IMG/VR virus record: IMGVR_UViG_3300028888_001839
Location: 185,001-249,000 of that record
Direction: 5' to 3' (one strand)
Length of the DNA stretch: 64,000 nucleotides
Origin: a virus
Lineage: Duplodnaviria > Heunggongvirae > Uroviricota > Caudoviricetes
Of this stretch, positions 1 to 21,299 are shown piece by piece. The notes beneath the pieces are model-generated. The model had not been told where the DNA came from, did not search any database, and saw only the letters and a list, made by a program, of their open reading frames with translations. Both the position numbers and the translations under genes were made by a program. How positions within the stretch are numbered: position 1 is the first letter of the stretch; each line of letters starts with the position of its first letter.

Positions 1-2
1 AG

Positions 3-209
3 CATATAGAGAAGTGGTGTGAGAAGAATCTTGGATTCGTGCCAGAAATTACTCATGAGAAGGATTCGTTAATGGAGAAGCTATATGACGACAGAGTTGT
101 ACAGGTGATTCCAGATACTGGTATTACAATTGAAGAGGCGGCAAGGAAAGTCCTATGGGATAAGAAATCACCAGATGTGAAAGCATTAATGGACTATCTG
201 ACGGAATGA
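3..209 (+). CDS. hypothetical protein (C-terminal fragment, 5' end outside window)
   Basis: Open frame from window edge to TGA at 207-209, no internal stops. Confidence 0.4.
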   Translation, partial: HIEKWCEKNLGFVPEITHEKDSLMEKLYDDRVVQVIPDTGITIEEAARKVLWDKKSPDVKALMDYLTE

Positions 210-409
210 AAAACCTTCCTTTTATAGTGCAGACATGCGATGCGGGAAACCATAGGCGTAAAGACCGACCCAATGGTGGGATGTACATTGGAGAAGGGAA
301 GGTTAGCTTAACCATAGCCGCAATGCAGCCACAGGAAACTCTAGTGGTGAGGATGCGGAAAAAGAAAACGATTTCGGATAGACTTCCACCTGCAAGTGTG
401 GTATAATCA

Positions 410-1636
410 ATGTCGCAAATGAGAAGCAAAGAAGGCAAAAGCAAAATGGGTGAAATCATAAGACACAAGTTCGACCTGAACGACAAGCCCGGATGGTTGA
501 AAATTAGAACAGAACTAGCTAACCAAGGAAGACTTGGCGGTTCAGACATAGGAGCGGCCGTAGGTGATAACCCTTACAAGTCGCCTTATGCGCTCTGGTG
601 TGAGATGGTTGGATTATATGAGCCAGAGGATATTTCCGACAAGGAGGCTATCAAGCAGGGGGTGATGTTTGAGGCGGCAGTTGCGGAACGATTTGCAAAA
701 GAGTCGGGAATTGGAGTTGAGGAAGTACCTTACATCTTTACCAACACTGATGCACCGCATCTTTTCGCAACTCCAGACCGTCTTTGCCTTGATGGAGAAT
801 CTGGATTGGAGTGCAAGACGGCTAAAGAGATTGTAATGAAGAAGTTTCCAAGAGGAGACTTCCCGCAGCAGTATTTCGACCAGTGCTGCTGCTATCTCAA
901 GGTGACTGAGCGCAAGCGGTGGTATATCGCAATCCTCATCTACGGAGTAGCCTTCAACATATACATGATGACTACCATCAAGGAAGAGGCAGATAGATTC
1001 AACTATCTAAAGACGAAAGTAGACGGCGGAGAAATCCTTACGCCAGAAGAGAGTGAGGAATGGCAGAAACAGAACTGGCTAGTTGCCGCATACTATATTG
1101 ACAAGGAAGCACTCGATGCAGTAGAACTAGCGGCGGCAAACTTCATTCATAGGGTGAATGAGGGCAAGAAAGGCAACATGGAGGTCTGGCCCATAGAGGA
1201 AATCGACGGCTCGGAATCCACGGCAAGGGCACTCGCTTACTCTAATCCTAGGCCAAAGCCGTCTTCTGTCGTGACGTTTGACAGCGCAGAGATTTATGGT
1301 GTGCAGGACGATGGGAATGCGTTTGTAGATGCGAAAGGTGACGAAGTTTGCCGTCTCGTTGCGCAAAGGCTGGAGTACGACAACACAATCAAGATGCTCG
1401 AGACGGAGAAGGACGAATGCGACAACAAACTTGCTGCCATCATGAAAGATAAGGAGAAGTTTGTTGTTCCAGGTTGTTCCGTAACCTACAAGATGGTCTC
1501 TGGGAGAGAGACGGCGAGCGTCAAGGCGGTGAAGGCTTATTTTGAGGCGAAGGGCGAGAAGATTCCAGATGGGATGATTACGAAGAGTGATGATTATAGA
1601 GGAATTCGCTTCTATCCTTCCCGCAAGAAAGCATAG
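410..1636 (+). CDS. YqaJ/lambda-exonuclease-like recombination exonuclease (PD-(D/E)XK) with C-terminal extension
   Basis: 408 aa ORF; N-terminal region with GSDIGAAVG...SPYALWCEMVG pattern typical of YqaJ viral recombinase exonucleases; sits immediately upstream of a RecT gene. Confidence 0.6.
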   Translation: MSQMRSKEGKSKMGEIIRHKFDLNDKPGWLKIRTELANQGRLGGSDIGAAVGDNPYKSPYALWCEMVGLYEPEDISDKEAIKQGVMFEAAVAERFAKESGIGVEEVPYIFTNTDAPHLFATPDRLCLDGESGLECKTAKEIVMKKFPRGDFPQQYFDQCCCYLKVTERKRWYIAILIYGVAFNIYMMTTIKEEADRFNYLKTKVDGGEILTPEESEEWQKQNWLVAAYYIDKEALDAVELAAANFIHRVNEGKKGNMEVWPIEEIDGSESTARALAYSNPRPKPSSVVTFDSAEIYGVQDDGNAFVDAKGDEVCRLVAQRLEYDNTIKMLETEKDECDNKLAAIMKDKEKFVVPGCSVTYKMVSGRETASVKAVKAYFEAKGEKIPDGMITKSDDYRGIRFYPSRKKA

Positions 1637-1678
1637 GATTTGTTTCAGTAAACAAAGAAAGACGAAAGGAAAAACAAA

Positions 1679-3640
1679 ATGGCAATGGATACAAGTTCAT
1701 TGAAAGCGGCCGCAAAGCCGACAACTGCTGTCGCGACGCAGACACAGCAGAAAGCCCTAACTCCAGCACAGCGAGTGAAGGGGATGCTAGAGAAGAGGAT
1801 TGGAGAAATCGCCAATGCGCTTCCTAAAGGTTGGGACGAAAAGAGATTCGTCAGAATTGCACTGACTGCAATCTCCTCCAACCCGAAGCTCGCACAGGCA
1901 TGTGCTCTGTCGCCAGCAACATTCCTCGGTTCCATGATGAATGCAGCCCAGTTGGGCCTAGAGCCTAACACTCCGATGGGCAAGGCATACCTTCTCCCCT
2001 ACAACAACATCGACAAGAACACCGGGAAGAAAGTCCCGATGGTTCAGTTCCAGATTGGCTATCTGGGATATATCGACCTCGCATTCCGTTCTGGGAAAGT
2101 GAAGTCGATTACGGCGGAAGTCCGCTATGCAAAGGACTTCTGGGAGTATGAGAAGGGCATCAATGAGAAGTTGAAGCACATTCCTTATGACGAGGGTGAC
2201 CCCGGCGAAGCGGTGGGCTATTATGCCGTAATCCACATGAAGGATACAATCAATCCAGACGGAAGCAAGACGGAAGGAGCGGTAATCACCGCATACATGC
2301 CTAAGTTTCGTGTCATAGAGCATGCGAAGAAGTTCTCAAAGTCTTACAACAAGAAGACTGGAACATTCTCAGGCCCTTGGGCTTCGGACTTCGATAGCAT
2401 GGCGAAGAAAGGGCTATCTCTTGATACAGAGATTCCAACAGCAGAGGGTTGGACAACTATGGGTGAGATAGAGAAGGGCATGACTGTTTATGATATGGAC
2501 GGCAATCCTACACGGGTTATTGCGGTATCTGAAGAGAAGAATCTCGATTGCTTTGAGATTGTATTTTCGAATGGAAGGAAAGTTGTTTGCGATGATGAAC
2601 ATCGGTGGGTAGCGAAAATCGGGCTAAATGCTCGGAGAAAAGTTCGCGGGAAAGGATGGAGCACACATACTATCAATGAACTATTTGATGCGAAACAAAG
2701 GGGAGAGCTTATTATTGTCCCATTGATTCCAGGTATAAAGGCAAAGAAAGCAACACTTCCAATAGACCCATGGTTGTTGGGATTCTGGATTGGAGATGGA
2801 AGCCACACGAACGGCTGCGTGTGTTGTAGTGATGAAGACCTTCCTCATATCAAAGCAATGATAGATAAGTCTGGACTTAAGATTGGTGCCATACGGAAGG
2901 ATCCTCGTGCTAATGTCAATCAAGTGATGGTTCGGGGGTTGAAGGCTCTACTCAAACAAAATAAACTTTTTGGGAATAAGCATATTCCTCAAGAGTATCT
3001 AAGGGCGAGTGCCGAACAACGTCTTGCACTACTTCGTGGTCTTATGGATTCCGATGGTTGTATGGAGAAGAGTAGGGGGCGTGCTATATTTACAAATACT
3101 AGCAGTGTCATTGCAGATGGAGTTAGGGAACTTGCTTCCTCTTTAGGAGAAGTTGTGTGTGACTCTACTCATATTTGCAAGGGATTCGGGAAGTCGGTTC
3201 GTTGTCGTTACTTGATGTGGCAACCAATTCTTAACCCATGTACTCTGCCAAGGAAAGCAGACCGCTTTAGAGAGCGTGAGGTTATTCCGTATCGTAGTAT
3301 TAAGTCTATTAAGAGGATTCCTTCTGTGACAACCAAATGTATCGCAGTAGATTCTCCTACAAATACATACCTCTGTACAAGGGACTTCATTCCAACACAT
3401 AACACCGTTCTTCTGCAGGCATTGAAGTATGCTCCGAAGGCTTCTGAGGATGCGATGTTCGCAAATGCCTTTACGATGGACAACACCGTGCGAGACGGCA
3501 TAGAGAAGGATGCCTCTACAATCAAGACGGAGGGAATCTTCGCAACAAATCCAGCGGATGGAGCGATAGAAGCGGATGTCGTTGAAGAGAACGACGGTGG
3601 AGAGGAAGAGGGAACCGAGTCCGAAGGTGGAGAGGATTAA
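1679..3640 (+). CDS. recT: RecT-family single-strand annealing protein interrupted by an intein (Hint + LAGLIDADG endonuclease)
   Basis: RecT-like N-terminal part (KAYLLPYNN, QFQIGYLGYIDLAFRSG); conserved RecT motif MAKK|TVLLQALKYAP is split by ~330 aa carrying LDTEIPTAEG (Hint block A), two LAGLIDADG motifs (LLGFWIGDGS, LALLRGLMDSDGC) and terminal ...IPTHN followed by T. Confidence 0.7.
   Translation: MAMDTSSLKAAAKPTTAVATQTQQKALTPAQRVKGMLEKRIGEIANALPKGWDEKRFVRIALTAISSNPKLAQACALSPATFLGSMMNAAQLGLEPNTPMGKAYLLPYNNIDKNTGKKVPMVQFQIGYLGYIDLAFRSGKVKSITAEVRYAKDFWEYEKGINEKLKHIPYDEGDPGEAVGYYAVIHMKDTINPDGSKTEGAVITAYMPKFRVIEHAKKFSKSYNKKTGTFSGPWASDFDSMAKKGLSLDTEIPTAEGWTTMGEIEKGMTVYDMDGNPTRVIAVSEEKNLDCFEIVFSNGRKVVCDDEHRWVAKIGLNARRKVRGKGWSTHTINELFDAKQRGELIIVPLIPGIKAKKATLPIDPWLLGFWIGDGSHTNGCVCCSDEDLPHIKAMIDKSGLKIGAIRKDPRANVNQVMVRGLKALLKQNKLFGNKHIPQEYLRASAEQRLALLRGLMDSDGCMEKSRGRAIFTNTSSVIADGVRELASSLGEVVCDSTHICKGFGKSVRCRYLMWQPILNPCTLPRKADRFREREVIPYRSIKSIKRIPSVTTKCIAVDSPTNTYLCTRDFIPTHNTVLLQALKYAPKASEDAMFANAFTMDNTVRDGIEKDASTIKTEGIFATNPADGAIEADVVEENDGGEEEGTESEGGED
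2411..3403 (+). mobile_element. Intein (Hint domain with embedded LAGLIDADG homing endonuclease) inside recT
   Basis: Boundaries inferred from restoring the RecT MAKK-TVLL motif; ends in HN with +1 Thr. N-terminal junction residue is non-canonical (Gly/Ser), so the exact start is uncertain by 1-2 codons. Confidence 0.6.
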
Positions 3641-3643
3641 TCC

Positions 3644-3934
3644 TTGTCTATGGCGAATTCGGTACAGATAAAGTACCATGGGGAAGTTCTCTGCTGCCTT
3701 GACCAGACGGAGGTCAAGGCAGTGGAGCCCTATGTGTTCTGCAAGCCTCCTATCAGAAACGTGTTCCAGCGGATAGCCGATTGGACGTATCGGTTTGTGA
3801 CAGGAAAGCGAACAAACGTTATGGTTGGGGATAACGGAAGTTCGTGCGACTCTGGCACGAAAATCCTATTCAAGGACGGTACTTGGATGCGCTTGAAGAT
3901 TCCCTTTATGGAGTTTGTGAATGGCTACTGCTAA
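3644..3934 (+). CDS. hypothetical small protein
   Basis: 96 aa ORF in a co-directional gene string; no recognisable motif. Confidence 0.3.
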   Translation: MSMANSVQIKYHGEVLCCLDQTEVKAVEPYVFCKPPIRNVFQRIADWTYRFVTGKRTNVMVGDNGSSCDSGTKILFKDGTWMRLKIPFMEFVNGYC

Positions 3935-4631
3935 TGAGACAACGCATAAGGAAATCTGGAAATCTCCTCCCTCTCTCAATTGTCAGAGGGTGGAGGTTTC
4001 TAATTTAGGGAGGGTAAGGACACTCCCTTATTATAGGAGTTTCATTCGGCTTGGCGTTCCCGTAACAAATAAGTGTAATGAAAAAATCCTCAAGTGCGGA
4101 AAGGATTCCAGAGGGAGGAGATTCATCTGCGGAGGAACCATAAAGAAGTCTCTATATGGGAAGGGGTTCTTGGTCCATCGGCTAGTAGCCGAATGCTTTG
4201 TTCCAAATCCAAAGCCAAAAGAGTATGACATGGTATTCTTCAAAGATGGGGATGTGGGAAACTGCAAGGCATCAAATCTCGAATGGGGTTGTAGGAGGGA
4301 TAGGAATTTGATGGCAAGGGGCAATCGTGCAATCTATAAGATTCTAGTCATCTCTAACGGGAAAAAGATTGGAGAATATATTGGATGTGGAGAAACAGGT
4401 AGAGCCCTAGGGTGTACAAAACAGTCGGTTCATGCTGCGATAATGAATGGCACTCTATGCAAAGGATATGAACTAGTAGCATTGAAGGGAGATGGAGACA
4501 AGCCATATCATTCGCTCGAAGAGGCAAGAAAAGCTGATAGCTTCAAGCCTATAAGCAATGGGTTCTTGATTCCAGACGAAATATATTCCAAGAAGGATGT
4601 TGAGATACCGATGGAGGCTGTGTTCAAGTGA
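3921..4631 (+). CDS. HNH homing endonuclease (HNH_3-like)
   Basis: 236 aa; NLEWGCRRDRN and HRLVAECFVPNP motifs typical of phage HNH_3 endonucleases. Confidence 0.6.
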   Translation: MATANETTHKEIWKSPPSLNCQRVEVSNLGRVRTLPYYRSFIRLGVPVTNKCNEKILKCGKDSRGRRFICGGTIKKSLYGKGFLVHRLVAECFVPNPKPKEYDMVFFKDGDVGNCKASNLEWGCRRDRNLMARGNRAIYKILVISNGKKIGEYIGCGETGRALGCTKQSVHAAIMNGTLCKGYELVALKGDGDKPYHSLEEARKADSFKPISNGFLIPDEIYSKKDVEIPMEAVFK

Positions 4632-4649
4632 AAGAAAATATTACAAGTT

Positions 4650-4682
4650 GATGCCGTGCGGTTGTCTGCACGGCATTTTTTG
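4650..4682 (+). terminator. rho-independent terminator
   Basis: GATGCCGTGC-GGTTGTCT-GCACGGCAT hairpin followed by TTTTTT. Confidence 0.6.
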
Positions 4683-4710
4683 CATATAGGGCAATAGATT
4701 AAGGTGCATT

Positions 4711-5523
4711 ATGCAAGAGAATACCGAGCAGAAAACGGAAAAGGTGGCGCTTGACCAAGACACGGTCATCGGAGATGCCATGTGCGAGGCGTCGCAGTTG
4801 TTCTATGAAGCGGCGAACCAGATAGCGAGGTGCATCAGCGAAAATGCACAATGCTGCATTGACAATGCATTGTTGAGAAGGGCTGAACTCGCCTTGGCTT
4901 ATATGCAAGGGGTGTCTTTTGGGTTGGCTATGGACGATGCCGTGCAGAAGTGGTATTTGACTGAAATGGAAAAGAGCATGGCTTCCATATTGAACAGTCA
5001 GTCTCTAGCCTTTCAGCCACAGATATACGTTCCGCCAGCACCTGGCCCGATTATGGGTTTTGATAGTCGCAGGTGTTGTTCCCATTTTACATTCCTTCAT
5101 TGTCTCAATAACAACACACCTCCAAATAAGGAGTATGAGAAATCGGTGAAAGAAGACATCGTAAAGGACGATGGGCTCAAGTATCTGTTTGAGAAGGGTT
5201 TGCTCGACCCGACTGAGTTTGAGGGGGTGCTCAAGAAATATCCAGATTTGGCAGGAGAAAAGTCTGAAGAAGCACCAATGCCTGCAGAAGACAAGGCACC
5301 TAAAACTGATGTTAGCACTCCTATTCCTCCCTCTGGGATACTGCAGATTAGGGAAGAGGATGAGAAATCCACCGAAGATGATAATGCGAGTGTTCTCAAT
5401 CTCCGCAACCTATTTCGTGGTGGAAAAATAAACAAGAGCCAATATGTAGGAGGGCTCGCAACCCTTGTAGCGACAGGGCTTATTTCAAAGTCTGAATTTA
5501 CACGACTAAAGGCATCTTGCTAG
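4711..5523 (+). CDS. hypothetical protein
   Basis: 270 aa ORF, acidic C-terminal half, no recognised domain. Confidence 0.45.
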   Translation: MQENTEQKTEKVALDQDTVIGDAMCEASQLFYEAANQIARCISENAQCCIDNALLRRAELALAYMQGVSFGLAMDDAVQKWYLTEMEKSMASILNSQSLAFQPQIYVPPAPGPIMGFDSRRCCSHFTFLHCLNNNTPPNKEYEKSVKEDIVKDDGLKYLFEKGLLDPTEFEGVLKKYPDLAGEKSEEAPMPAEDKAPKTDVSTPIPPSGILQIREEDEKSTEDDNASVLNLRNLFRGGKINKSQYVGGLATLVATGLISKSEFTRLKASC

Positions 5524-5559
5524 TTGTTAGTTTCGGCATAGTTCAAGGAGACGGATAGG

Positions 5560-7662
5560 ATGTTCGGATTATTCCATAAGGGCAGCAAGAAAGACCAGCC
5601 GAAATACAAGAAGCATGGGAGGTCGGAGGGTGAGCCATCTGCTATCCAGAAGATGAGGAAGGCTATCGAGGACGGCATAGGGTTCTCTCCTGATTCTAGT
5701 TCTGGAGAGTTCCCCGTCATGGATGAATCCGCCATGACAGATGAGGAGTACACTGAGGCAATCGACAAGTTGTTTCCAGTTAGACTTACAGACTTCTTCA
5801 AGGCGGTGCAGGATGGGGCTGACCCATTTCCAATAAAAACCGACATGGTTGATATGAGCGTCCCTACAATGGACGATGTTACTGGAGGCAAGGGAGATGG
5901 TGTGCCAACGGGGAAGCCGTCCGTTCTTCCGAGGAACATAAGCGGGAATCTTCCGGGAGCCGTTCCGAGAAGTTCTCAGAGGTGTTATCCGCCACGGCAG
6001 GGGCTTCATGCTGGGTTAGAGGGTGGCGGATTTGCGATGCTTCCCGATCCTCTTCTACGCTTCCCGATAAACCCAAGAGTTCTCAAACACTTCCAATCGC
6101 GTATTTGGATTACATATACGGGATGCGCAATCATAGCAACACATGAGTTTGTGAATCGTGCCTGCATGATTCCAGCAGAAGATGCCATGGCGCATGGTTA
6201 CAAGGTCGTCTGCTCATCTACAAAGCATGAACATAGCAATGAGCATGATGCAGCGGAAGCAGATTTCCTGACGGAGATTAAGAAAGCCGCCGATAGGATG
6301 GGGTTGAACGAAGCATGTATTCGCTTAAATTACAAGAAGAAGGTGTTTGGAGTTGGTGTAGCAATTCCATGGGTAAGGTTTAGGGATGATTATAGATCCC
6401 CATCAGACAAGTCAGGTAAAACCCCATATAGCTATGCAGACCCTTACGACCCTAAAGCCATAAAACCAGGTTCGTTCAAAGGATTTGCTGTCATAGACCC
6501 ACACTGGCTTACTTACCAGTGGGACAAGGACAGCCGAACCAATCCACTCTCCCCGCACTTCCTAGAGCCGACATGGATAAAGGTAGGAGAAGAGAGAGTC
6601 CATCGCTCATGGGTGATAAGGAAAATAAACTCAGAGTTGCCAGACATCTTCAAGCCGGTGTATCTCTATGGCGGGCTGTCTTTGACGCAGATGATTTATG
6701 AAAGAGTGTGGGCCGCAGACAAGCTAGCAAATGAAGCACCGCTTCTAGCAATGACAAAGAGGCTTCTGATTGCAGACGGAAACCTCGAGCAGTTGCAGTC
6801 AGACCCGGCCCGTACAAACAAGTTCTTCAATGCCATAAACTTCTTCCGCGACAACTTCTCCATATTCGTGAAGAAGCCGTCTTCGAACGTGACGCAGTTG
6901 GATACGAACCTGTCGGAACTCACACCTCTTACGATGTCGCAGTATCAGTTGGTTGCTGCCATTGCACAGATTCCTGTCACTAAGTTGCTGAAAAACGTTC
7001 CTTCTGGCCTGCAGGCAACAGGGCAATACGAATGGGACGACTATGCCCAATCTCTAAAGGCTATCCAGAATAACGACTATACTCCTTTGTGCAAGATGTT
7101 CTACGAACTTTATTGTGCGTCGAACTATCCGGACAAGGATGACATGAAGCTAGACATAGAATGGAATCCTATTGACGTGCCGAAGGAGTCCGAAGTGGCA
7201 CAGATGAGTTCGCAGACGGCACAGTATGTTGCTCACCTTATCAATACCGGACTCATTGACATTGCGGAAGGTCGTGCGATGCTCCGCAAGACAAATCTCC
7301 CAGTTTTCCAGACGATTCCGACAGACATTCCAGAAATCCTCACCAAGATAGAGGAAGCAAAAGACCCTTCAGCCCAACAAGGAGGAATGCCTGGAATGCC
7401 GGGAGGGATGGACGGCGGCATGGGAGGCGGAATCCCTGCTCAGGGAGGAGAACAGCCCCCACCAGAACTGCCGCCAGAAGTCCAGAAGAACGACGAAATT
7501 TTCAAGAGCGTGATGAGGGACTTCCTTAAGAAGACTGGGCAGGAAGTACCAGCACCAGCCGAGCAGCAGCCACAGGCACAGCAGGGGCAACAACCTCAAG
7601 CACATGCCCAGCAGCCCCAACAAGCCCCCTCGGCACAACCACAACCTCCACCTAGAGGGTAG
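5560..7662 (+). CDS. putative portal protein with Q/P/G-rich low-complexity C-terminal tail
   Basis: 700 aa; size and position fit a portal protein; C-terminus is GMPGMPGGMDGG then QQPQ repeats. Family assignment is tentative. Confidence 0.35.
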   Translation: MFGLFHKGSKKDQPKYKKHGRSEGEPSAIQKMRKAIEDGIGFSPDSSSGEFPVMDESAMTDEEYTEAIDKLFPVRLTDFFKAVQDGADPFPIKTDMVDMSVPTMDDVTGGKGDGVPTGKPSVLPRNISGNLPGAVPRSSQRCYPPRQGLHAGLEGGGFAMLPDPLLRFPINPRVLKHFQSRIWITYTGCAIIATHEFVNRACMIPAEDAMAHGYKVVCSSTKHEHSNEHDAAEADFLTEIKKAADRMGLNEACIRLNYKKKVFGVGVAIPWVRFRDDYRSPSDKSGKTPYSYADPYDPKAIKPGSFKGFAVIDPHWLTYQWDKDSRTNPLSPHFLEPTWIKVGEERVHRSWVIRKINSELPDIFKPVYLYGGLSLTQMIYERVWAADKLANEAPLLAMTKRLLIADGNLEQLQSDPARTNKFFNAINFFRDNFSIFVKKPSSNVTQLDTNLSELTPLTMSQYQLVAAIAQIPVTKLLKNVPSGLQATGQYEWDDYAQSLKAIQNNDYTPLCKMFYELYCASNYPDKDDMKLDIEWNPIDVPKESEVAQMSSQTAQYVAHLINTGLIDIAEGRAMLRKTNLPVFQTIPTDIPEILTKIEEAKDPSAQQGGMPGMPGGMDGGMGGGIPAQGGEQPPPELPPEVQKNDEIFKSVMRDFLKKTGQEVPAPAEQQPQAQQGQQPQAHAQQPQQAPSAQPQPPPRG

Positions 7663-7664
7663 CG

Positions 7665-7898
7665 ATGGAAGCGGATGAAGTCCTTACTGGCAAAAAGAAG
7701 GATGAGAGCACGATAGAAGATGCTCTCTATTCTTCGTTGGGGAAGCCAGTTTCAGAAGACATAATCAAAGAGGCATTCAAAAGGAAGCCTCTAATTCCAG
7801 AACTCAACCCAGAACCATACATCAAAATAGTGGAGTTGAAGGGCAAGGATAGGAAGTCCCATCAAGGAGTGGAAATAGGATTGAAATTCTCATTCTAA
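7665..7898 (+). CDS. hypothetical small protein
   Basis: 77 aa ORF directly abutting neighbouring genes. Confidence 0.3.
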   Translation: MEADEVLTGKKKDESTIEDALYSSLGKPVSEDIIKEAFKRKPLIPELNPEPYIKIVELKGKDRKSHQGVEIGLKFSF

Positions 7899-7901
7899 AA
7901 T

Positions 7902-8645
7902 ATGGATATTGTTTATGTCATAGGAACGGAAAGCAGACATGGCAACCTTGAACTGAGGATGTCTCTCCGGTCCATAGCAATGTATGGAAATAACATCGGG
8001 AAGGTGATTGTTGTAGGTACTCCCCCGAACTGGCTTTCTGATGAAGTCATAAAAGTACCTGTAGCGGATAAGTATGTCTACAAGCACTCTAATATATTGA
8101 TGTGCATCGAGAAAGTGGTTGACCTTGGATTAGTCGATGGTGATTTTCTATATTCCTCGGACGATCATTTCTATTGTAGGTATGTTGATTTCAATAACTA
8201 TCCATATTATCTAAAGGGGCCACTCCGCAAGAGGGTAAACGAACTAGACCCTTTCTACAACTATCACAAGTCACTCTATGACACGAGAATGCTTTGCGAG
8301 AAGCATGGCTTCCCTACTAGAAACTATTCACAGCACTGCAACACTCATATGCATGCAGACGTGATAAGGCGAATAAAGCCCATACTCCGTGAATCCTATG
8401 GACTTCCATTTGGGGTAGAACCTACTTCGATCGTGATGAATGCTTGGCAGACTTTTCCTAATGCTCCCAAGGTTACAAAAAGAGAAGACGTGAAGATACT
8501 TCAAGCGAAGAGCCTAGCGGACATCTGGGAGCAGATTGGCGACAGGGATTGCTTTAGCATAGGTGATTCTGCTTTCTCTGGAAAGGCAATGATGTCATTC
8601 TTCAAGGAAGAATACGGGATCAAGTCAATTTACGAGAACGACTAA
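7902..8645 (+). CDS. Stealth-family (CR2-like) putative sugar phosphotransferase
   Basis: NLELRMSLRSIAMYGNNIGKVIVVGTPPNWL closely resembles the Stealth conserved region 2 signature (ELRYSLRS...P.WL); CR1 is absent. Confidence 0.4.
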   Translation: MDIVYVIGTESRHGNLELRMSLRSIAMYGNNIGKVIVVGTPPNWLSDEVIKVPVADKYVYKHSNILMCIEKVVDLGLVDGDFLYSSDDHFYCRYVDFNNYPYYLKGPLRKRVNELDPFYNYHKSLYDTRMLCEKHGFPTRNYSQHCNTHMHADVIRRIKPILRESYGLPFGVEPTSIVMNAWQTFPNAPKVTKREDVKILQAKSLADIWEQIGDRDCFSIGDSAFSGKAMMSFFKEEYGIKSIYEND

Positions 8646-8673
8646 AAAATCTTTCTTTTTATTCTACCCCCCA

Positions 8674-8702
8674 TTGAAAGCCGTCTGACTCTATGGTATA
8701 CT
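8674..8702 (+). promoter_or_regulatory. sigma70-type promoter with extended -10 (TTGAAA-17-TGgTATACT), copy 1 of a conserved promoter family
   Basis: TTGAAA at 8674-8679, TG-N-TATACT at 8694-8702; the same motif CCATTGAAAGCCG...TGGTATA recurs at 27901 and 35029. Confidence 0.55.
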
Positions 8703-8793
8703 ATACGGCGTTTCGAGGAACAAGGCCCTGAACCTAGATGGGCAAGAAAGAGATTCCTCCTAATGGTTCTTTGACAATTGGACGTTGAATTTC

Positions 8794-8836
8794 GGTAGCC
8801 GCCGAATGGGGTTGGTTCGAGTCCCCACGGCTACCA
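8794..8836 (+). ncRNA. tRNA-like minihelix (acceptor stem + T-arm only)
   Basis: GGTAGCC ... GGGGTTGGTTCGAGTCCCCAC ... GGCTACC-A: perfect 7-bp acceptor-like stem enclosing a TPsiC-like arm, no D or anticodon arm. Confidence 0.4.
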
Positions 8837-9774
8837 CAAGTTTCTGTGGAGCAATCGGCAGAGTAACATCGGCCGTACCACATAAAGACCTTCCTTCTAT
8901 GTCTTTGAGGGAATTTAACCAGGGGCCAAGAATAGTGGCAAAAGACTTCGATTTCCCAATCTTACATAATCAGTTAGGTTGGGGGAGCGGTGTGTGAAGC
9001 GCAGACTGCCAGAAAAAATTAACAACTAATAAAACGTCTGGTCGTGGAGTGCAGTCGGACGATAAACAAAAAGGCGAGGAGGCGATAGCATTTGCTATGT
9101 CAATGAACCGCTAAAGCATACAACATCTAGTTGTAGGGCTACTCACACTCTGGAAAAGAGCCAATCGTACTACCGCTCTATTCTGTTTGCTGCCCGATTC
9201 CTAATCAGTCTAACGGGTAGAGTGGGTGTGAGTCTGCTGGGGAGTAGCCTTCCATGATTGTTAGGCGAATCTTGGCGGAGGAAGCCCACAAGTGTTGTGA
9301 CAAGGTAGCCGTTGCCAAAAACATCTAAACGGCAGTTAGTCATCTAAGGAGGCTGTTGGAAACAAGGCAAGGATGGATGCTGGCTGGAGTGGCAGCCAAT
9401 ATGTTATCGTCTATGCGTCGGTCACATGAGGTAAGACGATAGCCAAGAGGTGTCAGGCATCTCACCATCTCAATTTCAATGGGTCTAAATCGGTTTCGAC
9501 GTGGTGACGGCAGTTGCATATGCAGGACGGTGATGTATCCTACACCGCAACGACGGATGCGAAACTCAAATGCCAACGATTAAGAACAATCTTCTGGGAG
9601 GGGCATCTTCCAGTTGGTGAGGTTCATGTAAGACCAAGAACTCCATAGAGGGGTTAGTGGCATGAACCGCTTGCAGCCAAGAATCCCGACAGCCTTAGCG
9701 TTGGGAGTATGTCAAAAGCAGCAGGAATGAACATTGCACTCTGCGGTGCCTGTTGCTTTCAATTTCAGCGAAGC

Positions 9775-9850
9775 GGGGATGTAGCTCAGATGGCAGAGCG
9801 ATTCCTTTACACGGAATATGTCGGCGGTTCGATTCCGTCCGTCCCTACCA
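9775..9850 (+). tRNA. tRNA-Val (anticodon TAC)
   Basis: Cloverleaf: acceptor GGGGATG/CGTCCCT, D GCTC/GAGC, anticodon stem ATTCC/GGAAT with loop TTTACAC, T-loop TTCGATT, CCA encoded. Confidence 0.8.
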
Positions 9851-9853
9851 GAA

Positions 9854-9931
9854 GAGGCTATAGCTCAATGGACAGAGCGCTACCCTCCGAAGGTAGGTCT
9901 TGTGTGGGTTCGATTCTCACTAGCCTCACCA
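9854..9931 (+). tRNA. tRNA-Arg (anticodon CCG)
   Basis: Acceptor GAGGCTA/TAGCCTC, anticodon stem CTACC/GGTAG with loop CTCCGAA, T-loop TTCGATT, CCA encoded. Confidence 0.75.
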
Positions 9932-9933
9932 AT

Positions 9934-10010
9934 GCGGGTGTAGCTCAATCGGACAGAGCGGCAGTTTCCTAAACTGTAGGTTGCTGGTTCGATCCCAGTC
10001 TCCCGCACCA
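9934..10010 (+). tRNA. tRNA-Arg (anticodon CCT)
   Basis: Acceptor GCGGGTG/CTCCCGC (one mismatch), anticodon stem GCAGT/ACTGT with loop TTCCTAA, T-loop TTCGATC, CCA encoded. Confidence 0.7.
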
Positions 10011-10019
10011 TTTCCAAGA

Positions 10020-10094
10020 GGGGCTATAGCTCAACGGATAGAGCAGTTGCCTTCTAAGCTACTGATGTGGTTTCGATTACCGCTAGCCCCACCA
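10020..10094 (+). tRNA. tRNA-Arg (anticodon TCT)
   Basis: Acceptor GGGGCTA/TAGCCCC, loop CTTCTAA, T-loop TTCGATT, CCA encoded. Confidence 0.7.
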
Positions 10095-10099
10095 ATTTT

Positions 10100-10187
10100 G
10101 CCAAGGTCGCATAGTCTGGCTGATTGCACGGGTTTTGTAAACCCGCTCCGAAAGGACACAGCGGTTCAAATCCGCTCCTTGGCTCCA
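10100..10187 (+). tRNA. type II (long variable arm) tRNA; anticodon ambiguous: TGT in a 7-nt loop, or GTA (Tyr) if the loop is 9 nt
   Basis: Acceptor GCCAAGG/CCTTGGC, 3-bp D stem with long D loop, variable hairpin TCC-GAAA-GGA, T-arm AGCGG/CCGCT, discriminator T, CCA encoded; anticodon arm CGGGT-TTTGTAA-ACCCG. Confidence 0.6.
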
Positions 10188-10195
10188 TGAGACTT

Positions 10196-10270
10196 GCCTC
10201 CGTAGGTGTAATGGCAAACCGCCACTTTCGTAAAGTGGATTTCCTAGTTCGAGTCTAGGCGGGGGCTCCA
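10196..10270 (+). tRNA. tRNA-Thr (anticodon CGT)
   Basis: Acceptor GCCTCCG/CGGGGGC, anticodon stem CCACT/AGTGG with loop TTCGTAA, CCA encoded. Confidence 0.75.
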
Positions 10271-10273
10271 GAT

Positions 10274-10346
10274 GCCCCCTTAGTTCAGTGGTAGAACGCC
10301 ATCTTGGTAAGATGGAGGTCGTCGGTTCGTTTCCGACAGGGGGCTT
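10274..10346 (+). tRNA. tRNA-Thr (anticodon GGT)
   Basis: Acceptor GCCCCCT/AGGGGGC, anticodon stem CCATC/GATGG with loop TTGGTAA, T-loop TTCGTTT; CCA not encoded. Confidence 0.75.
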
Positions 10347-10349
10347 TAA

Positions 10350-10436
10350 GCGGAGTGTAGACCGTAGCCTGGTACCGGGTCTGCTTTGGGAGCAGATGAG
10401 AAATCCTCGGGGGTTCGAATCCCTCCACTCCGACCA
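10350..10436 (+). tRNA. tRNA-like, type-II-like with variable hairpin; anticodon loop TTTGGGA (TGG?) and irregular D-arm
   Basis: Acceptor CGGAGTG/CACTCCG, T-arm GGGGG-TTCGAAT-CCCTC, CCA encoded, variable hairpin GAG-AAATC-CTC; D region does not fold canonically. Confidence 0.45.
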
Positions 10437-10441
10437 TTTTC

Positions 10442-10518
10442 GGACCCTTAGCTCAATTGGTTAGAGCATCTGGCCCATACCCAGACGGTTGTAGGATCGT
10501 TCCCTACAGGGTCCACCA
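10442..10518 (+). tRNA. tRNA with CAT anticodon (Met/fMet/Ile2), unusual C33
   Basis: Perfect acceptor GGACCCT/AGGGTCC, D GCTC/GAGC, anticodon stem TCTGG/CCAGA with loop CCCATAC (C at position 33), CCA encoded. Confidence 0.7.
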
Positions 10519-10531
10519 AAACGATTTCAAT

Positions 10532-10605
10532 GGGCCGATAGTTCAACGGTAGAATGCTTCTCCGGCAGAGAAGAGATGCAGGTTCAATTTCTGCCGTGTC
10601 CACCA
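10532..10605 (+). tRNA. tRNA-like, possibly Ala (GGC); acceptor stem has 3 mismatches, possible pseudogene
   Basis: D and T arms fold (T-arm GCAGG-TTCAATT-TCTGC), anticodon arm CTTCT-CCGGCAG-AGAAG, but acceptor GGGCCGA versus CGTGTCC pairs at only 4 of 7 positions. Confidence 0.4.
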
Positions 10606-10748
10606 TTTCCAGGGCGGTTGTGACAAAATCAGTGTTTATCATTTCCCAATTCCAATGATTTCGTTGGGGTGAATAATTGGGGAAAGAAAGCGTGATGGGC
10701 ATTAATGGAAATACGATGTCCTTCTTGACAATCGTCCTTTATTTTCAT

Positions 10749-10823
10749 GGGCCGGTAGCACAACAGTAGTGCAACTCCTTTGCAAGGAGTAGGTTGTCCG
10801 TGCGAATCGGATTCGGTCCACCA
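10749..10823 (+). tRNA. tRNA-Ala (anticodon TGC)
   Basis: Acceptor GGGCCGG/TCGGTCC (two G-U pairs), anticodon stem ACTCC/GGAGT with loop TTTGCAA, T-loop TGCGAAT, CCA encoded. Confidence 0.7.
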
Positions 10824-10831
10824 ATTTTAAT

Positions 10832-10910
10832 GAGGCATGTAGCTTAAGATTAATGAGCGGGCGGTGATGAGCCGCCTATGTGTCGGTGCGAATCCGTCCA
10901 TGCTTCACCA
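10832..10910 (+). tRNA. tRNA with non-canonical anticodon loop TGATGAG (no U33; GAT/Ile-like or ATG) and a 3-nt acceptor-D connector
   Basis: Acceptor GAGGCAT/ATGCTTC, anticodon stem GGCGG/CCGCC, T-loop TGCGAAT, CCA encoded. Confidence 0.5.
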
Positions 10911-10918
10911 ATTTTATC

Positions 10919-10992
10919 GCACTGATGATGTAGCGGTAACATAAGGGCTTCCCAAGCCTTTCTCACGGGTTCGAGTCCCGTTCAGTGCTCCA
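10919..10992 (+). tRNA. tRNA-Gly (anticodon CCC)
   Basis: Acceptor GCACTGA/TCAGTGC, D ATGT/ACAT, anticodon loop TTCCCAA, T-arm ACGGG-TTCGAGT-CCCGT, CCA encoded. Confidence 0.75.
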
Positions 10993-11083
10993 TTTAGAAG
11001 CCTCTCCGCCAGAGTCCCGATCTGTCGGTCTGTATAAGGGAACGAGGTAGCCCCCGCTGAAAGCAGTAGGATAAGGGGCAAAT

Positions 11084-11159
11084 GCGGACTTAGTACAGTT
11101 GGTAGTACGTATCCTTGCCAAGGATGAGGTCACGGGTTCGAGTCCCGTAGTTCGCTCCA
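11084..11159 (+). tRNA. tRNA-Gly (anticodon GCC)
   Basis: Acceptor GCGGACT/AGTTCGC, D GTAC/GTAC, anticodon stem TATCC/GGATG with loop TTGCCAA, T-arm ACGGG-TTCGAGT-CCCGT, CCA encoded. Confidence 0.8.
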
Positions 11160-11163
11160 TTTT

Positions 11164-11238
11164 GCAAGATTGGCAGAGAAGTTATGCGCCACCCTTCCAA
11201 GGTGGTTTACGCCGATGCGAGTTCGGCATCTTGCTCCA
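11164..11238 (+). tRNA. tRNA-Gly (anticodon TCC)
   Basis: Acceptor GCAAGAT/ATCTTGC, anticodon stem CCACC/GGTGG with loop CTTCCAA, T-arm GCCGA-TGCGAGT-TCGGC, CCA encoded. Confidence 0.7.
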
Positions 11239-11495
11239 TCTTGAAAAGCGTCCCGAATGCGTCGGCCCAGAAGTACAATGGGTGCAAGGGCTCGCAAGCA
11301 ACGGCAGAAGATTCGGGTGCTCGTTCCGCATAGGACGTGAAGGTCCACCCAAGAAGGGGCGAACTCGGTTGCAAGTGTTATCAAGTTCTGCAACAACGGA
11401 TAGGCGAGAATCTGACTTGCAGGCGCAAGTGCAACCCAAAGGTTCGGTGAGGCGCAACACGGGAAAGGGCGCATGTGATTTTTTAGTGGCATACG
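11239..11495 (+). ncRNA. GC-rich ~250-nt structured element after the tRNA array, ending in a U-tract; candidate small RNA
   Basis: Roughly 55% GC versus ~45% for the window; no credible ORF; ends ...GGGCGCATGTGATTTTTTAG. Confidence 0.3.
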
Positions 11496-11599
11496 AGGTT
11501 CCTATTCAATAACTTGTTTGGGTATAAGTCAAATACCTCCCGCCACTTCTCCATTTGTGAGACATAGAGAGTTCCTATTCAATCGATCATACGACGAAG

Positions 11600-11619
11600 C
11601 ACGGGGCAACAACCCTGTG
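11600..11619 (+). other. acceptor-like hairpin CACGGGG-CAACAA-CCCTGTG inside a repeat unit
   Basis: 7-bp stem with one G-U pair, 6-nt loop; same architecture as the junctions of the permuted tRNA-like elements. Confidence 0.3.
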
Positions 11620-11677
11620 TAGTTTCTACTCTCCGTCTCATTTCCCTTTCAGGGGCAGAGGAAGTTCCTATTGATTT

Positions 11678-11753
11678 GAGAAGCTAGCTCAATGGAAGAG
11701 CGCCTTGGAGGAATCCAAGGAGATTACGGGTTCGAGTCCCGTGCCTTTCACCA
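11678..11753 (+). tRNA. tRNA-like gene with full cloverleaf but non-canonical 6/8-nt anticodon loop (CCTTGG-AGGAAT-CCAAGG)
   Basis: Acceptor GAGAAGC/GCCTTTC (one mismatch), D GCTC-AATGGAA-GAGC, T-arm ACGGG-TTCGAGT-CCCGT, CCA encoded; no U33. Confidence 0.45.
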
Positions 11754-11802
11754 ATACTTTCCGCCCCGCTTTTTTGCGGCACAGAATGTTCCTATAAAAA
11801 TG

Positions 11803-11880
11803 CTTGGTAAGCAGGAGGTCGTGGGTTCAAATCCCACTGCGGAGGGCTTGCACCTCCGTATAGCTCAGTCTGGTAGAGCG
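11803..11880 (+). ncRNA. Permuted/split tRNA-like element: 3' half (anticodon loop 3' side TTGGTAA, T-arm GTGGG-TTCAAAT-CCCAC, acceptor 3' strand) then linker then 5' half (acceptor 5' strand + D-arm TAGCTCAGTCTGGTAGAGC)
   Basis: 3' strand TGCGGAGG is complementary to the downstream CCTCCGTA with one G-U pair, forming an acceptor hairpin closed by a GCTTGCA loop. Confidence 0.45.
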
Positions 11881-12057
11881 CCTAAATAATACATTCCGCC
11901 GCTTTTCCAATTTCAATGTGGCAAAAGACGTTCCTATTACTTTGGTTGGTCTTCTATCCTCCAAAGGGATGGAAGATGGGGTTCAAATCCCCGTTAATAC
12001 GTCTCGCCACTGATTCTTCAGAGGCATATTGAGTTCCTATAAAAAGACACGCAGAGT

Positions 12058-17432: not shown

Positions 17433-18222
17433 AGGAATCAACAACCCATTAATTCTCGCTGCTACTAGCGATATTCATGGACACTTAGAGGGCATACAGG
17501 AAGTATGCTTTTCGAGAAATGTTGACATACTTGTAATAGCAGGAGACATCGAGCCAGCAGACCTCTTTACTAGCAAGCCTTACTGGTTTGAGCGCAAGTT
17601 CTTCCCGCTTATATCGAAACTAAATTGTGAAGTGGTAGCGATTCCTGGCAATCACGACTTCTATCTGTCTAGCAAGTATAAAGCAATCAAGAGAGGCGAA
17701 TACTCACGTGTTCCAAAGAACTTCCATCTTCTGATTGACGAGGAAGTGACGATAAAAGGCATAAGGTTCTATGGCACTCCTTGGGTGCCATACATAAACG
17801 GAAGATGGTGCTTTGAAGCTGATGATGAAGACCTTGCAGACAGGTTTTTGCAGATGCCTGCAAGAGTAGATGTTCTCATAACACATTCTCCGCCTCTAAT
17901 GAAGTATCATGAGGCTGACATGAGTCTAGACTATCCTCCTGAATATCGTCGTCACTTCGGGAGCAATAGTCTTGCTAGAGTGATTGATGCTAAAGCACCT
18001 AGGATGGTTGTCTTTGGCCATATCCATAGCGGCAACCATAGATGCACTACGCTGCATGCGAATCTCGAAAACTCAATAGTCCATATGTGGAACGTATCCC
18101 GAGTGAACGAAGAATACAATATCGCATATAAGATAAAATTGCTAGAACTAAACCCAAACAGTATAAGGGAGATGTCGTTTAATGAGCCATTTCCGACAGG
18201 AAAGGACAAGGTGGTGGGGTAA
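17425..18222 (+). CDS. calcineurin-like metallophosphoesterase
   Basis: DIHGH, GDIEP, GNHD and GHIH motifs; ATG at 17425 overlaps the upstream stop (ATGTTTGA). Confidence 0.65.
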   Translation: MFEGINNPLILAATSDIHGHLEGIQEVCFSRNVDILVIAGDIEPADLFTSKPYWFERKFFPLISKLNCEVVAIPGNHDFYLSSKYKAIKRGEYSRVPKNFHLLIDEEVTIKGIRFYGTPWVPYINGRWCFEADDEDLADRFLQMPARVDVLITHSPPLMKYHEADMSLDYPPEYRRHFGSNSLARVIDAKAPRMVVFGHIHSGNHRCTTLHANLENSIVHMWNVSRVNEEYNIAYKIKLLELNPNSIREMSFNEPFPTGKDKVVG

Positions 18223-20081: not shown

Positions 20082-21299
20082 ATGAAAAGATTCTTTGCTT
20101 CAGTTCTCCCCGCATTTCTGCTTGCTGTTTCTGTCGGACAGATTTATGCTTTCACTAACTTCTCTTCGGAGATAGCATCTTACATAGGGGAGACGCAGCA
20201 GGCGGTGCAGTTCGCATTCTCATTGGGGATATTCTTTCTAGGGATGGGGGCTGCATTCTTCGGTAAGATTGTGGAGAAGAACATTCATCGTTCCACCATG
20301 ATAGGAATGGCTCTATTCATAACGGGACTAGCCGTAACCTCTGTCGGAATATACTTCAAGTCACTCTGGTCTATCTATCTTGGCTATGGTTTTCTTCTAG
20401 GGCTAGGGACTGGAGTTATCTATATAACCCCAGTGAAGACGATGATGCTATGGTTCCCAGACAATAAGGCCATCGCCGCCGCAGTCCCAATCATTTCATT
20501 TGGGTTGGGTTCTACTCTTTCGACAATCATATACAAAGGGTGTTGCGGAATCGGAGGACTTTATGACTTGTTCAATGTAGCAACCGACAGCAAGGGAATG
20601 TTTTTCGTGATGATGTCTTTTGCCGTCATCTACCTTGTCACGATGGGTATTGCATCTACGATGCTTCGGAAGCCAGATGCAGCCAATAATGCAGACATAG
20701 TTAATCCGAAAATCAGTTCTTTCTCTTATGTTCGCTTGCTAGGTGATAGGTTCTTTCTGCAGTCTTGGCTTTTTATGTTCCTTAACATCTCTGCTGGTCT
20801 CTGTCTAATCCCATTGGCAAAGCAGATGATGGATGCCCCAGACATAGGTTATCGTGCATCTACTATCACCTTGGTGATAGGGCTATGTGGACTAATGAAT
20901 GGCGGAGGTAGGTTCTTCTTTGCATGGTGGAGCGATAGACTGACTATTAGGAAGCATATCCTAATTTATATATCTCTTATCTCATTCTTGACGATGGCGG
21001 TTAGCCTTAAGTTCGCCGTGGTAATAGGCATAGCCCTACTCATCATAAATGCCTGTTATGGTGCGGGATTCTCCGTCATACCGGGTATTTTGGCAGACCA
21101 CTATGGCATGTCGGACATATCTAAGATCCACGGAGCGGTTCTGTCTGCATGGGGAGTGGCAGGCCTTGTCGGGAATCAGGCGGCACTCTATGTTGGAAGC
21201 AATTTTGGAGGGTATAAGGCCGTCATAAGTATGCTTATCATTGTCTATTTGTTGAATATGCTAAACTCTGGGTATATGCTAAAGAAGCACGAAAGATGA
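20082..21299 (+). CDS. MFS-type membrane transporter (oxalate/formate-antiporter-like)
   Basis: 405 aa with about 12 predicted hydrophobic helices; MFS motif-A-like WWSDRLTIRK between helices. Confidence 0.55.
   Translation: MKRFFASVLPAFLLAVSVGQIYAFTNFSSEIASYIGETQQAVQFAFSLGIFFLGMGAAFFGKIVEKNIHRSTMIGMALFITGLAVTSVGIYFKSLWSIYLGYGFLLGLGTGVIYITPVKTMMLWFPDNKAIAAAVPIISFGLGSTLSTIIYKGCCGIGGLYDLFNVATDSKGMFFVMMSFAVIYLVTMGIASTMLRKPDAANNADIVNPKISSFSYVRLLGDRFFLQSWLFMFLNISAGLCLIPLAKQMMDAPDIGYRASTITLVIGLCGLMNGGGRFFFAWWSDRLTIRKHILIYISLISFLTMAVSLKFAVVIGIALLIINACYGAGFSVIPGILADHYGMSDISKIHGAVLSAWGVAGLVGNQAALYVGSNFGGYKAVISMLIIVYLLNMLNSGYMLKKHER

Follow-up and report, generated by a model that had tools for sequence, protein, structure and literature searches.

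We analysed a 64,000-nucleotide stretch of Caudoviricetes phage DNA (positions 185,001 to 249,000 of IMG/VR record IMGVR_UViG_3300028888_001839; hereafter, the window) and found that its recT gene is interrupted by a sequence that is very probably a mobile class 3 intein. In this element a HINT splicing domain encloses a LAGLIDADG homing endonuclease with two motifs, and the whole is lodged in frame between the Lys and the Thr of the RecT motif MAKK|T. A preliminary description, made from the DNA letters, had already proposed an intein with a LAGLIDADG endonuclease inside RecT; this proposal is borne out by alleles that possess and lack the insert, by homologous inserts in unrelated hosts, and by similarity to solved inteins in both sequence and fold.

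The insertion in recT and its intein-free alleles

The recT open reading frame (ORF) extends over 1679..3640 on the + strand and encodes 653 aa, and each feature that the preliminary description had placed in it was found where it had been put. We found that the RecT profile (Pfam PF03837) matched the precursor over aa 56-244 only, ending at profile position 163 of 198, and that the NCBIfam RecT models ended at aa 245 (TIGR00616 covers aa 8-245). Excision in silico of aa 245-575 (nt 2411-3403, 331 codons) yielded a 322-aa RecT whose Pfam score rose from 125.8 to 148.6 bits, with profile positions 2-189 of 198 now covered. The precursor, the ligated RecT and the intein have calculated masses of 72.0, 35.0 and 37.0 kDa, respectively. 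The N-extein comprises aa 1-244 (1679..2410, + strand) and ends in ...DFDSMAKK, with Lys244 as the -1 residue; its assignment draws on the Pfam RecT and TIGR00616 matches and on 94% DNA identity to intein-free alleles through nt 2410. The C-extein comprises aa 576-653 plus the stop codon (3404..3640, + strand), begins with TVLLQALKYAP and joins on to MAKK in the spliced product; its first residue, Thr576 (3404-3406, + strand), is the predicted +1 nucleophile.

With the in-silico spliced RecT as the query, we recovered 322-aa intein-free RecTs (P0121/P0122) that are 97-98% identical to it. The sequence MAKK|TVLLQALKYAPK, the same as in the spliced product, was uninterrupted in 11 of the 14 closest intein-free RecTs among the matches listed, and the motif MA(K/R/L)K|T was present in 113 of the 120 RecTs listed. 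Intein-free alleles were found on four syntenic metagenome contigs (L001-L004). In L001-L003, recT is followed by the same downstream genes as in the window (ORFs of 94, 236 and about 270 aa); L004 is too short to show them. On either side of the insert, through nt 2410 and from nt 3404 onward, the DNA of all four matches the window at 94-95% identity, with a clean gap of exactly 993 bp between the flanks, and the empty site reads GATAGCATGGCGAAGAAA|ACTGTTCTTCTGCAGGCA. The junction bases are not repeated, and thus there is no nucleotide ambiguity in either border. These alleles fix to the base the junctions MAKK|G...HN|T that had been proposed for 2411-3403, and they turn the roughly 330 aa said to split the 653-aa RecT into an exact 331-codon insert relative to 322-aa alleles. 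Alignment to intein-free RecT homologues gave no sign of a native insertion domain at this place. In addition, the GC content of the insert is 0.435, as compared with 0.51/0.52 in the exteins, and an identical, intact 653-aa ORF occurs on five contigs from independent samples, one of them the 213-kb JGI metagenome contig to which the window belongs. The fact that close phages are polymorphic for a discrete 993-bp element indicates the pattern of a mobile intein rather than that of a native RecT domain.

The spliced RecT aligns with LiRecT of a Listeria phage (7ub2) across the junction (AMAKK|TVLRNML). By this alignment, the insertion point lies between the equivalents of LiRecT K206 and T207, at the start of DNA-binding helix α3: Lys244 (-1) aligns with K206, and the start of the C-extein aligns with helix α3, AMAKKTVLRNMLS. 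In LiRecT, K206 touches the inner DNA strand, and the K206E substitution abolished DNA binding (PMC9772228). Because the insert splits helix α3 beside the K206 equivalent, the unspliced precursor should be inactive and is unlikely to anneal DNA. A gene for a YqaJ-type exonuclease lies directly upstream of recT (410-1636), so that the gene split by the intein is the annealase member of a classical phage pair of exonuclease and annealase. The insertion point in recT agrees with the general preference of inteins for functional sites. The RecA intein of Mycobacterium tuberculosis likewise interrupts a recombination protein at a functional site, but it is a class 1 intein (Cys1) with an ATP-dependent recombinase as host, and it is bacterial and chromosomal.

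The splicing domain and its class 3 signature

The putative intein is 331 aa long (37.0 kDa; Gly1 ... Thr329-His330-Asn331) and occupies 2411..3403 on the + strand, as judged from the presence or absence of 993 bp, from its homologues, from its GC content and from a structural model. It begins with GLSLDTEIPT and ends with FIPTHN|T; the LDTEIPT start, the two LAGLIDADG motifs and the IPTHN followed by Thr that had been pointed out earlier are all in the sequence. The N-terminal lobe of the HINT domain (intein aa 1-100; 2411..2710, + strand) has its counterpart in aa 2-80 of 6rix, 6riy and 6bs8, which are class 3 DnaB inteins (domain E about 1e-13), and the C-terminal lobe (intein aa 291-331; 3281..3403, + strand) aligns to aa 100-145 of class 3 DnaB inteins. 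The match to these inteins covers aa 2-80 and 291-331 of the insert, which places the endonuclease between the two splicing lobes.

We located the splicing blocks, all on the + strand, as follows. Block A, GLSLDTEIPTAEG, lies at 2411-2449, and Cys47 is encoded at 2549-2551. Block B, GRKVVCDDEHRWVA (2573-2614), contains D61-D-E-H64-R-W66, in which His64 is B:10 and Trp66 is B:12. Block F, VTTKCIAVDSPTNTYLC (3326-3376), contains K309-C310-I311-A-V-D314...Y320, with Cys310 as F:4 at 3338-3340. Block G, FIPTHN (3386-3403), ends in T329-H330-N331, Thr329 being G:5, and is followed by Thr576. Cys310 aligns on the catalytic Cys of the class 3 DnaB inteins (6bs8, 6rix), THN aligns on THN, and Trp66 aligns with Trp67 of the M. 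smegmatis and M. chimaera DnaB inteins. Across 114 aligned full-length homologues, H64, W66, C310, T329, H330 and N331 are invariant and position 320 is always Phe or Tyr; D61 is present in 112 and C47 in 107.

Class 3 inteins have no N-terminal nucleophile, carry the WCT triplet (Trp B:12, Cys F:4, Thr G:5) and usually have Ser or Thr at +1 (PMC2807308, PMC3196547, PMC4031507); the DxxH form of block B is typical of them (PMC12245125). Their first nucleophile is the block F Cys, and neither Cys nor Ser is required at residue 1 (Tori et al. 2010, PMC2807308). The preliminary description had called the Gly-Leu-Ser start non-canonical. Gly1 is real and offers no nucleophile, but it is no anomaly: because residue 1 is not the nucleophile in class 3, Gly1 needs no side chain and represents the normal state of an intein with W66, C310 and T329. 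Consistent with this, residue 1 of the 114 homologues is Gly in 72, Ala in 40 and Pro in 2, never Cys, Ser or Thr, and the +1 residue is Thr (70), Ser (41) or Cys (2). By all sequence criteria examined, then, the insert is a class 3 intein.

Similarity to solved structures points the same way. In a sequence search against these, the best matches were the class 3 inteins 6rix and 6riy (M. chimaera DnaB1) and 6bs8 (M. smegmatis DnaBi1), at E=3e-21 to 3e-20, whereas the class 1 gp41-1 intein scored only 1e-3. An AlphaFold model of the insert, built from an alignment of 67 sequences, had a mean predicted local distance difference test score (pLDDT) of 97.1 and a predicted template modelling (TM) score (pTM) of 0.93. 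When this model was compared with the Protein Data Bank (PDB) by Foldseek, PI-SceI, the archetype of inteins with a LAGLIDADG endonuclease, was the top overall fold (TM 0.77-0.79); TliVMA, PhoVMA and PI-PfuI, other inteins that bear endonucleases, were matched as well, and the class 3 DnaB mini-inteins covered both splicing lobes (TMt 0.79-0.87).

The mycobacterial DnaB mini-inteins (6bs8, 6rix, 6riy) are thus the closest solved relatives, at E about 1e-21 to 1e-20. They share with the window intein the LxLDTxxPTPxGWTTMG start, the DxxH-x-W block B, Cys F:4, the THN end, Lys at -1 and Ser or Thr at +1. They are, however, bacterial, lack an endonuclease, start with Ala and reside in the DnaB P-loop, whereas the window intein has a full LAGLIDADG domain, starts with Gly and has a phage RecT as its host. 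The class 3 prototype, the DnaB intein of mycobacteriophage Bethlehem (MP-Be; PMC2807308), is closer in layout, being phage-borne, about 340 aa long and equipped with a LAGLIDADG domain; both lack an N-terminal nucleophile and have the WCT triplet and Thr+1. Mutations of His65, Trp67, Lys319, Cys320, Ile321, Asp324 or the aromatic residue 330 impair or abolish splicing of the MP-Be intein (PMC2807308), and these residues map one-to-one on H64, W66, K309, C310, I311, D314 and Y320 here. The two differ in that the MP-Be intein has Pro1, Gln at -1 and a helicase host, whereas the window intein has Gly1, Lys at -1 and an ATP-independent annealase as host.

A Ser does stand two residues into the insert (Gly-Leu-Ser), and the element could accordingly be read as a class 1 intein whose N-terminal junction is displaced, such that Ser247 (intein residue 3) would be the true first residue and nucleophile and Gly-Leu would be kept in RecT. 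We consider this exceedingly improbable. In the empty alleles, which lack exactly 993 bp, MAKK runs straight into TVLL and no Gly-Leu is left between them, and intein position 3 is Ala in 76, Pro in 19 and Ser in just 4 of the 114 homologues; on these two grounds Ser247 was rejected as an alternative nucleophile. Furthermore, Leu2 aligns with residue 2 of the solved class 3 inteins, and F:4 is Cys, not the Asp of class 1, with the Trp and Thr accompanying that Cys in 114 of 114 homologues.

Several points weigh against the assignment to a mobile class 3 intein. Splicing, its branched intermediates and the endonuclease activity are attributed here by homology to characterised class 3 inteins, and placement in class 3 is drawn from the signature and the nearest relatives. 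The Pfam Hint and Intein_splicing models and the NCBIfam intein-terminus models (TIGR01443/01445) gave no match to the insert even at E<=1-10; since solved class 3 sequences match at 1e-21, we take the silence of these hidden Markov models (HMMs) to reflect a limit of sensitivity for the class 3 lineage. Position 13 of block F is Asn318 here as opposed to His328 in the MP-Be intein, in which an H328A substitution was without effect (PMC2807308). Finally, no significant co-conversion or low-divergence tract was detected around the insertion site. The comparison with profiles that the preliminary description had suggested therefore succeeded in part: Pfam LAGLIDADG_3 matches (E=2e-8), whereas the Pfam Hint models are blank and the splicing domain is seen through solved class 3 inteins and through its fold.

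The silence of the curated intein HMMs would also suit an insert that no longer splices, either because the intein is dead or decaying or because it has become a domesticated insertion domain, and that leaves RecT inactive or working with a permanent 37-kDa insert. Class 3 intein pseudogenes are known, for example Arth_1007 of Arthrobacter FB24 (PMC3196547), and a phage RecT may be dispensable. Nevertheless, we judge such a state very unlikely. The catalytic residues lost in Arth_1007 (His B:10 and Cys F:4) are intact here, likewise W66, T329, H330, N331 and Thr+1; the precursor ORF is uninterrupted and identical on all five contigs; and both exteins are still 94% (DNA) and 97-98% (protein) identical to those of intein-free alleles. 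As for domestication, a RecT whose helix α3 remained split beside the K206 equivalent would hardly be expected to anneal DNA.

If the insert is a class 3 intein, splicing would proceed by the route described for that class. The 72-kDa precursor would fold, and Cys310, placed by His64, Trp66 and Thr329, would attack the Lys244-Gly245 bond to give a branched thioester with the N-extein on Cys310. The N-extein would then move to the side chain of Thr576, cyclisation of Asn331 would release the 37-kDa intein, and an O-to-N acyl shift would leave a native Lys-Thr bond in a 35-kDa RecT. At the splice junction, the predicted product is the same as the intein-free alleles, to which it is 97-98% identical overall.

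The predicted homing endonuclease, relatives of the insert and probable mobility

The LAGLIDADG homing-endonuclease domain spans intein aa about 101-290 (2711..3280, + strand) and was recognised by Pfam, phmmer and Foldseek. Its first motif, PWLLGFWIGDGS (2768-2803, + strand; LLGFWIGDG), contains Asp129; block D, LFGNKHIPQEYL (2966-3001, + strand), contains Lys190; and the second motif, RLALLRGLMDSDG (3020-3058, + strand; LLRGLMDSDG), contains Asp215. The Pfam LAGLIDADG_3 match scored 34.6 bits against a cut-off of 22.5, and Hom_end matched at E=8e-4. We found by phmmer that aa 188-252 align to PI-SceI 299-364, such that K190 corresponds to K301 and D215 to D326. Among the homologues, D215 is conserved in 114 of 114, K190 in 112 and D129 in 99. 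In Foldseek, the endonuclease core matched I-DmoI (E about 3e-6, TMt 0.51-0.58) as well as the endonuclease domain of PI-SceI, and it showed the αββαββα pseudo-dimeric fold; pLDDT exceeded 94 throughout the domain. PI-SceI, the yeast VMA1 intein, has the same two-domain layout of HINT and monomeric double-LAGLIDADG endonuclease, but it belongs to class 1 (Cys1, Cys+1), has an extra DNA-recognition region and is about 17-18% identical to the window intein. Given that D129, D215 and K190 are intact and conserved, an active endonuclease that cuts AAGAAA|ACT is plausible.

We used the 331-aa insert as a query and retrieved 557 homologous proteins, the best at E=4.7e-107 and 52% identity, a similarity that chance cannot account for. 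The match spanned the entire insert in nearly all of the 120 homologues listed. These proteins belong to at least seven unrelated host families: RecT, Rad52/22, ERF, PD-(D/E)XK/Cas4 nucleases, dCTP deaminase, DnaB-like helicases and TerL. Full-length homologues are 34-52% identical to the insert and are always flanked by K| and |T/S/C, and Pfam confirmed the spliced Rad52 and ERF hosts. The occurrence of one module in unrelated proteins is a hallmark of inteins. The residue at -1 was Lys in 113 of the 113 nearest homologues across unrelated hosts, in contexts that include the P-loop GK|T, the D.K|TGK of PD-(D/E)XK nucleases, the EGK|SS of dCTP deaminase and the MAKK|T of RecT; in a more distant intein, that of the Mycobacterium phage Nebkiss TerL (L010), it is Glu. 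The constant Lys may represent an extein requirement for splicing, or the lineage may have arisen in GK|T/S P-loops.

In GenBank phages, 669 records contained relatives of the insert at 33-38% identity, in Cas4/RecB-like exonucleases, TerL and DnaB. The nearest relatives from cultured phages thus sit in known class 3 hosts (TerL, RecB/Cas4, DnaB). Gly1 occurs, for example, in Mycobacterium phage Traft412 gp72, a Cas4 exonuclease (DYK|GLDLDT...PTHN|TG), and in Pseudomonas phage Rollin WNV50632.1 (DLK|GLPLGT...PTHN|TGK); Gly1 in class 3 inteins is therefore already known from cultured phages. These class 3 inteins of phage Cas4/RecB-like PD-(D/E)XK exonucleases are 37-38% identical to the window intein over all 331 aa and share with it Gly1, Lys-1, Thr+1 and the THN end. 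They too reside in a phage recombination protein, right after a catalytic or DNA-contacting Lys; their hosts, however, have a nuclease fold rather than that of an annealase, so that the homing target DNA is unrelated. Inteins of RecB-like nucleases have been described by Kelley et al. 2016 (PMC5050341). The phage of the window is uncultured, and a megablast search with window positions 1-12000 against 50,697 GenBank phages gave no match. When the whole precursor was compared by tblastn with these 50,697 phage records, none covered >=80% of it.

The same class 3 lineage was found in all three annealase superfamilies and in partner nucleases, with 38-45% identity in the annealase hosts; the related hosts are Rad52-type (P0010, P0014), ERF (P0017, P0021) and PD-(D/E)XK proteins (P0019-P0059 and others). 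In the Rad52-type hosts the split falls at ...AIK|TAESDALKRA, corresponding by BLASTP to K144|E145 of human RAD52; in the ERF hosts it falls at TGDK|C/S. LiRecT K206 is equivalent to RAD52 T148 (PMC9772228). The Rad52-type split and the RecT site share helix α3, but the former lies about one turn further upstream, and the two are not strictly homologous. A placement of the Rad52-type split after the equivalent of RAD52 K152 was rejected in favour of the BLASTP result. A phmmer search of the PDB with spliced P0010 returned nothing useful.

The distribution of the element among RecTs bears on whether it moves. RecTs that are 29-43% identical to the window RecT (29-51% with short partial alignments) carry an intein at the same MA(K/L)K|T position, and the inteins in those distant RecTs are 44-52% identical to that of the window; the nearest RecTs (97-98%) are empty. 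Occupation of the site in distant RecTs, together with its emptiness in the nearest relatives, supports lateral spread. During co-infection, the freed intein endonuclease would cut an intein-free recT at AAGAAA|ACT, and repair of the cut allele from the occupied copy would spread the element. Within -39..+76 nt of the insertion site, occupied and empty alleles differ solely in the Thr+1 codon, by a synonymous change (ACC when occupied, ACT in all four empty alleles) that could affect recognition by the endonuclease. The near-identity of this interval is not significant, because mismatch-free stretches as long or longer occur elsewhere in the locus.

Divergence near the site is thus no lower than in the rest of the locus, as would be expected if splicing were intact but the endonuclease inactive, leaving the intein as a vertically inherited passenger. 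The nearest intein relative is just 52% identical, which fits such a history as well. Degenerate endonucleases are common among inteins. A passenger of this kind appears unlikely to us, although less so than the other alternatives considered above. Both LAGLIDADG motifs remain intact and are conserved, together with D129, D215 and Lys190 of block D, and the whole domain is modelled with high confidence. Moreover, closely related phages are polymorphic for the element, and the occupied sites in RecTs of 29-43% identity form a pattern that needs lateral spread.

Implications and other features of the window

What looks new here is the host, RecT, and the insertion site for a class 3 intein; the mechanism looks ordinary, and the current understanding of inteins is unchanged. 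A full-text literature search, whose coverage is incomplete, found no description of inteins in RecT or other single-strand annealing proteins. RecT, and through the relatives the Rad52-type and ERF annealases, would join the list of intein hosts. The targeting of functional sites would thereby extend to ATP-independent recombinases, class 3 inteins having first been described mainly in helicase/ATPase P-loops. RecTs with an intein form at least 12 clusters at 90% identity in metagenomes; at least one is labelled "phage RecT family recombinase" and most are unnamed. As standard intein HMMs miss the lineage, such genes are annotated merely as "RecT" or "LAGLIDADG endonuclease", which is probably why they have gone unnoticed, and further inteins may be concealed in the unusually long RecTs of phage metagenomes. 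The intein is predicted to supply a new LAGLIDADG specificity. In addition, RecT is a tool for recombineering and class 3 inteins are a tool for protein engineering, and a natural RecT::intein with a matched empty allele suits tests of conditional annealase control.

Two related and more speculative readings concern the link with recombination; taken jointly, we hold them to be rather improbable. The first is that the intein is more than a parasite and serves phage recombination as a switch gated by redox state. The position of Cys48 in M. smegmatis DnaBi1 is taken here by Cys47, and C310, the counterpart of the catalytic Cys, is also present. Splicing of DnaBi1 requires Cys48, which H2O2 links reversibly to the catalytic Cys through a disulfide, making that intein a redox sensor; Cys48 has been called non-conserved (PMC6195587), whereas its equivalent C47 is present in 107 of 114 relatives here. 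By analogy, and speculatively, oxidation could keep RecT in its inactive precursor form, to mature once conditions become reducing again. The presence of an NrdD gene (anaerobic ribonucleotide reductase; 22377-24623) on the phage suggests an anaerobic host. The second reading is that the class 3 lineage has systematically colonised the recombination module: the occurrence of one lineage in RecT, Rad52-type and ERF annealases, where it would lie within or close to their common DNA-binding helix α3, and in their PD-(D/E)XK partners suggests that this module is a preferred habitat. If true, the break made by the lineage's own endonuclease would be repaired by the same machinery that the lineage targets.

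The intein appears once in the window. An intein-family HMM run against its six frames found no second copy, and Pfam searches of 10 other long ORFs of the window found no further intein. Two genes downstream of recT, a 236-aa ORF (3921-4631, + strand) has sub-threshold matches to HNH_3 (E=1e-4) and NUMOD4 (E=4e-3) and is, on the strength of these, probably a free-standing homing endonuclease; because it is also present on the intein-free contigs L001-L003, it is independent of the intein. A 402-aa ORF at 33020-34228 (+ strand), with OrfB_IS605 and Cas12f1-like TNB domains, represents a TnpB-type element.

The window further carries a dense array of 15 tRNA genes at 9775-11753 (+ strand; Val, 3 Arg, 3 Thr, Pro, Met, Ala, His, 3 Gly). 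The last tRNA call (11678-11753) has a 4-base anticodon, 'ggaa', with no amino acid assigned, and could be a frameshift-suppressor-like tRNA or an ARAGORN artefact. Genes for a DnaG primase (18222-20078) and an RNA ligase (28783-30039) were also found. An MFS (major facilitator superfamily) transporter (20082-21299, + strand) and an SPFH/flotillin-like protein (31193-32821, + strand) are encoded among the phage replication genes and are unusual cargo for a phage.

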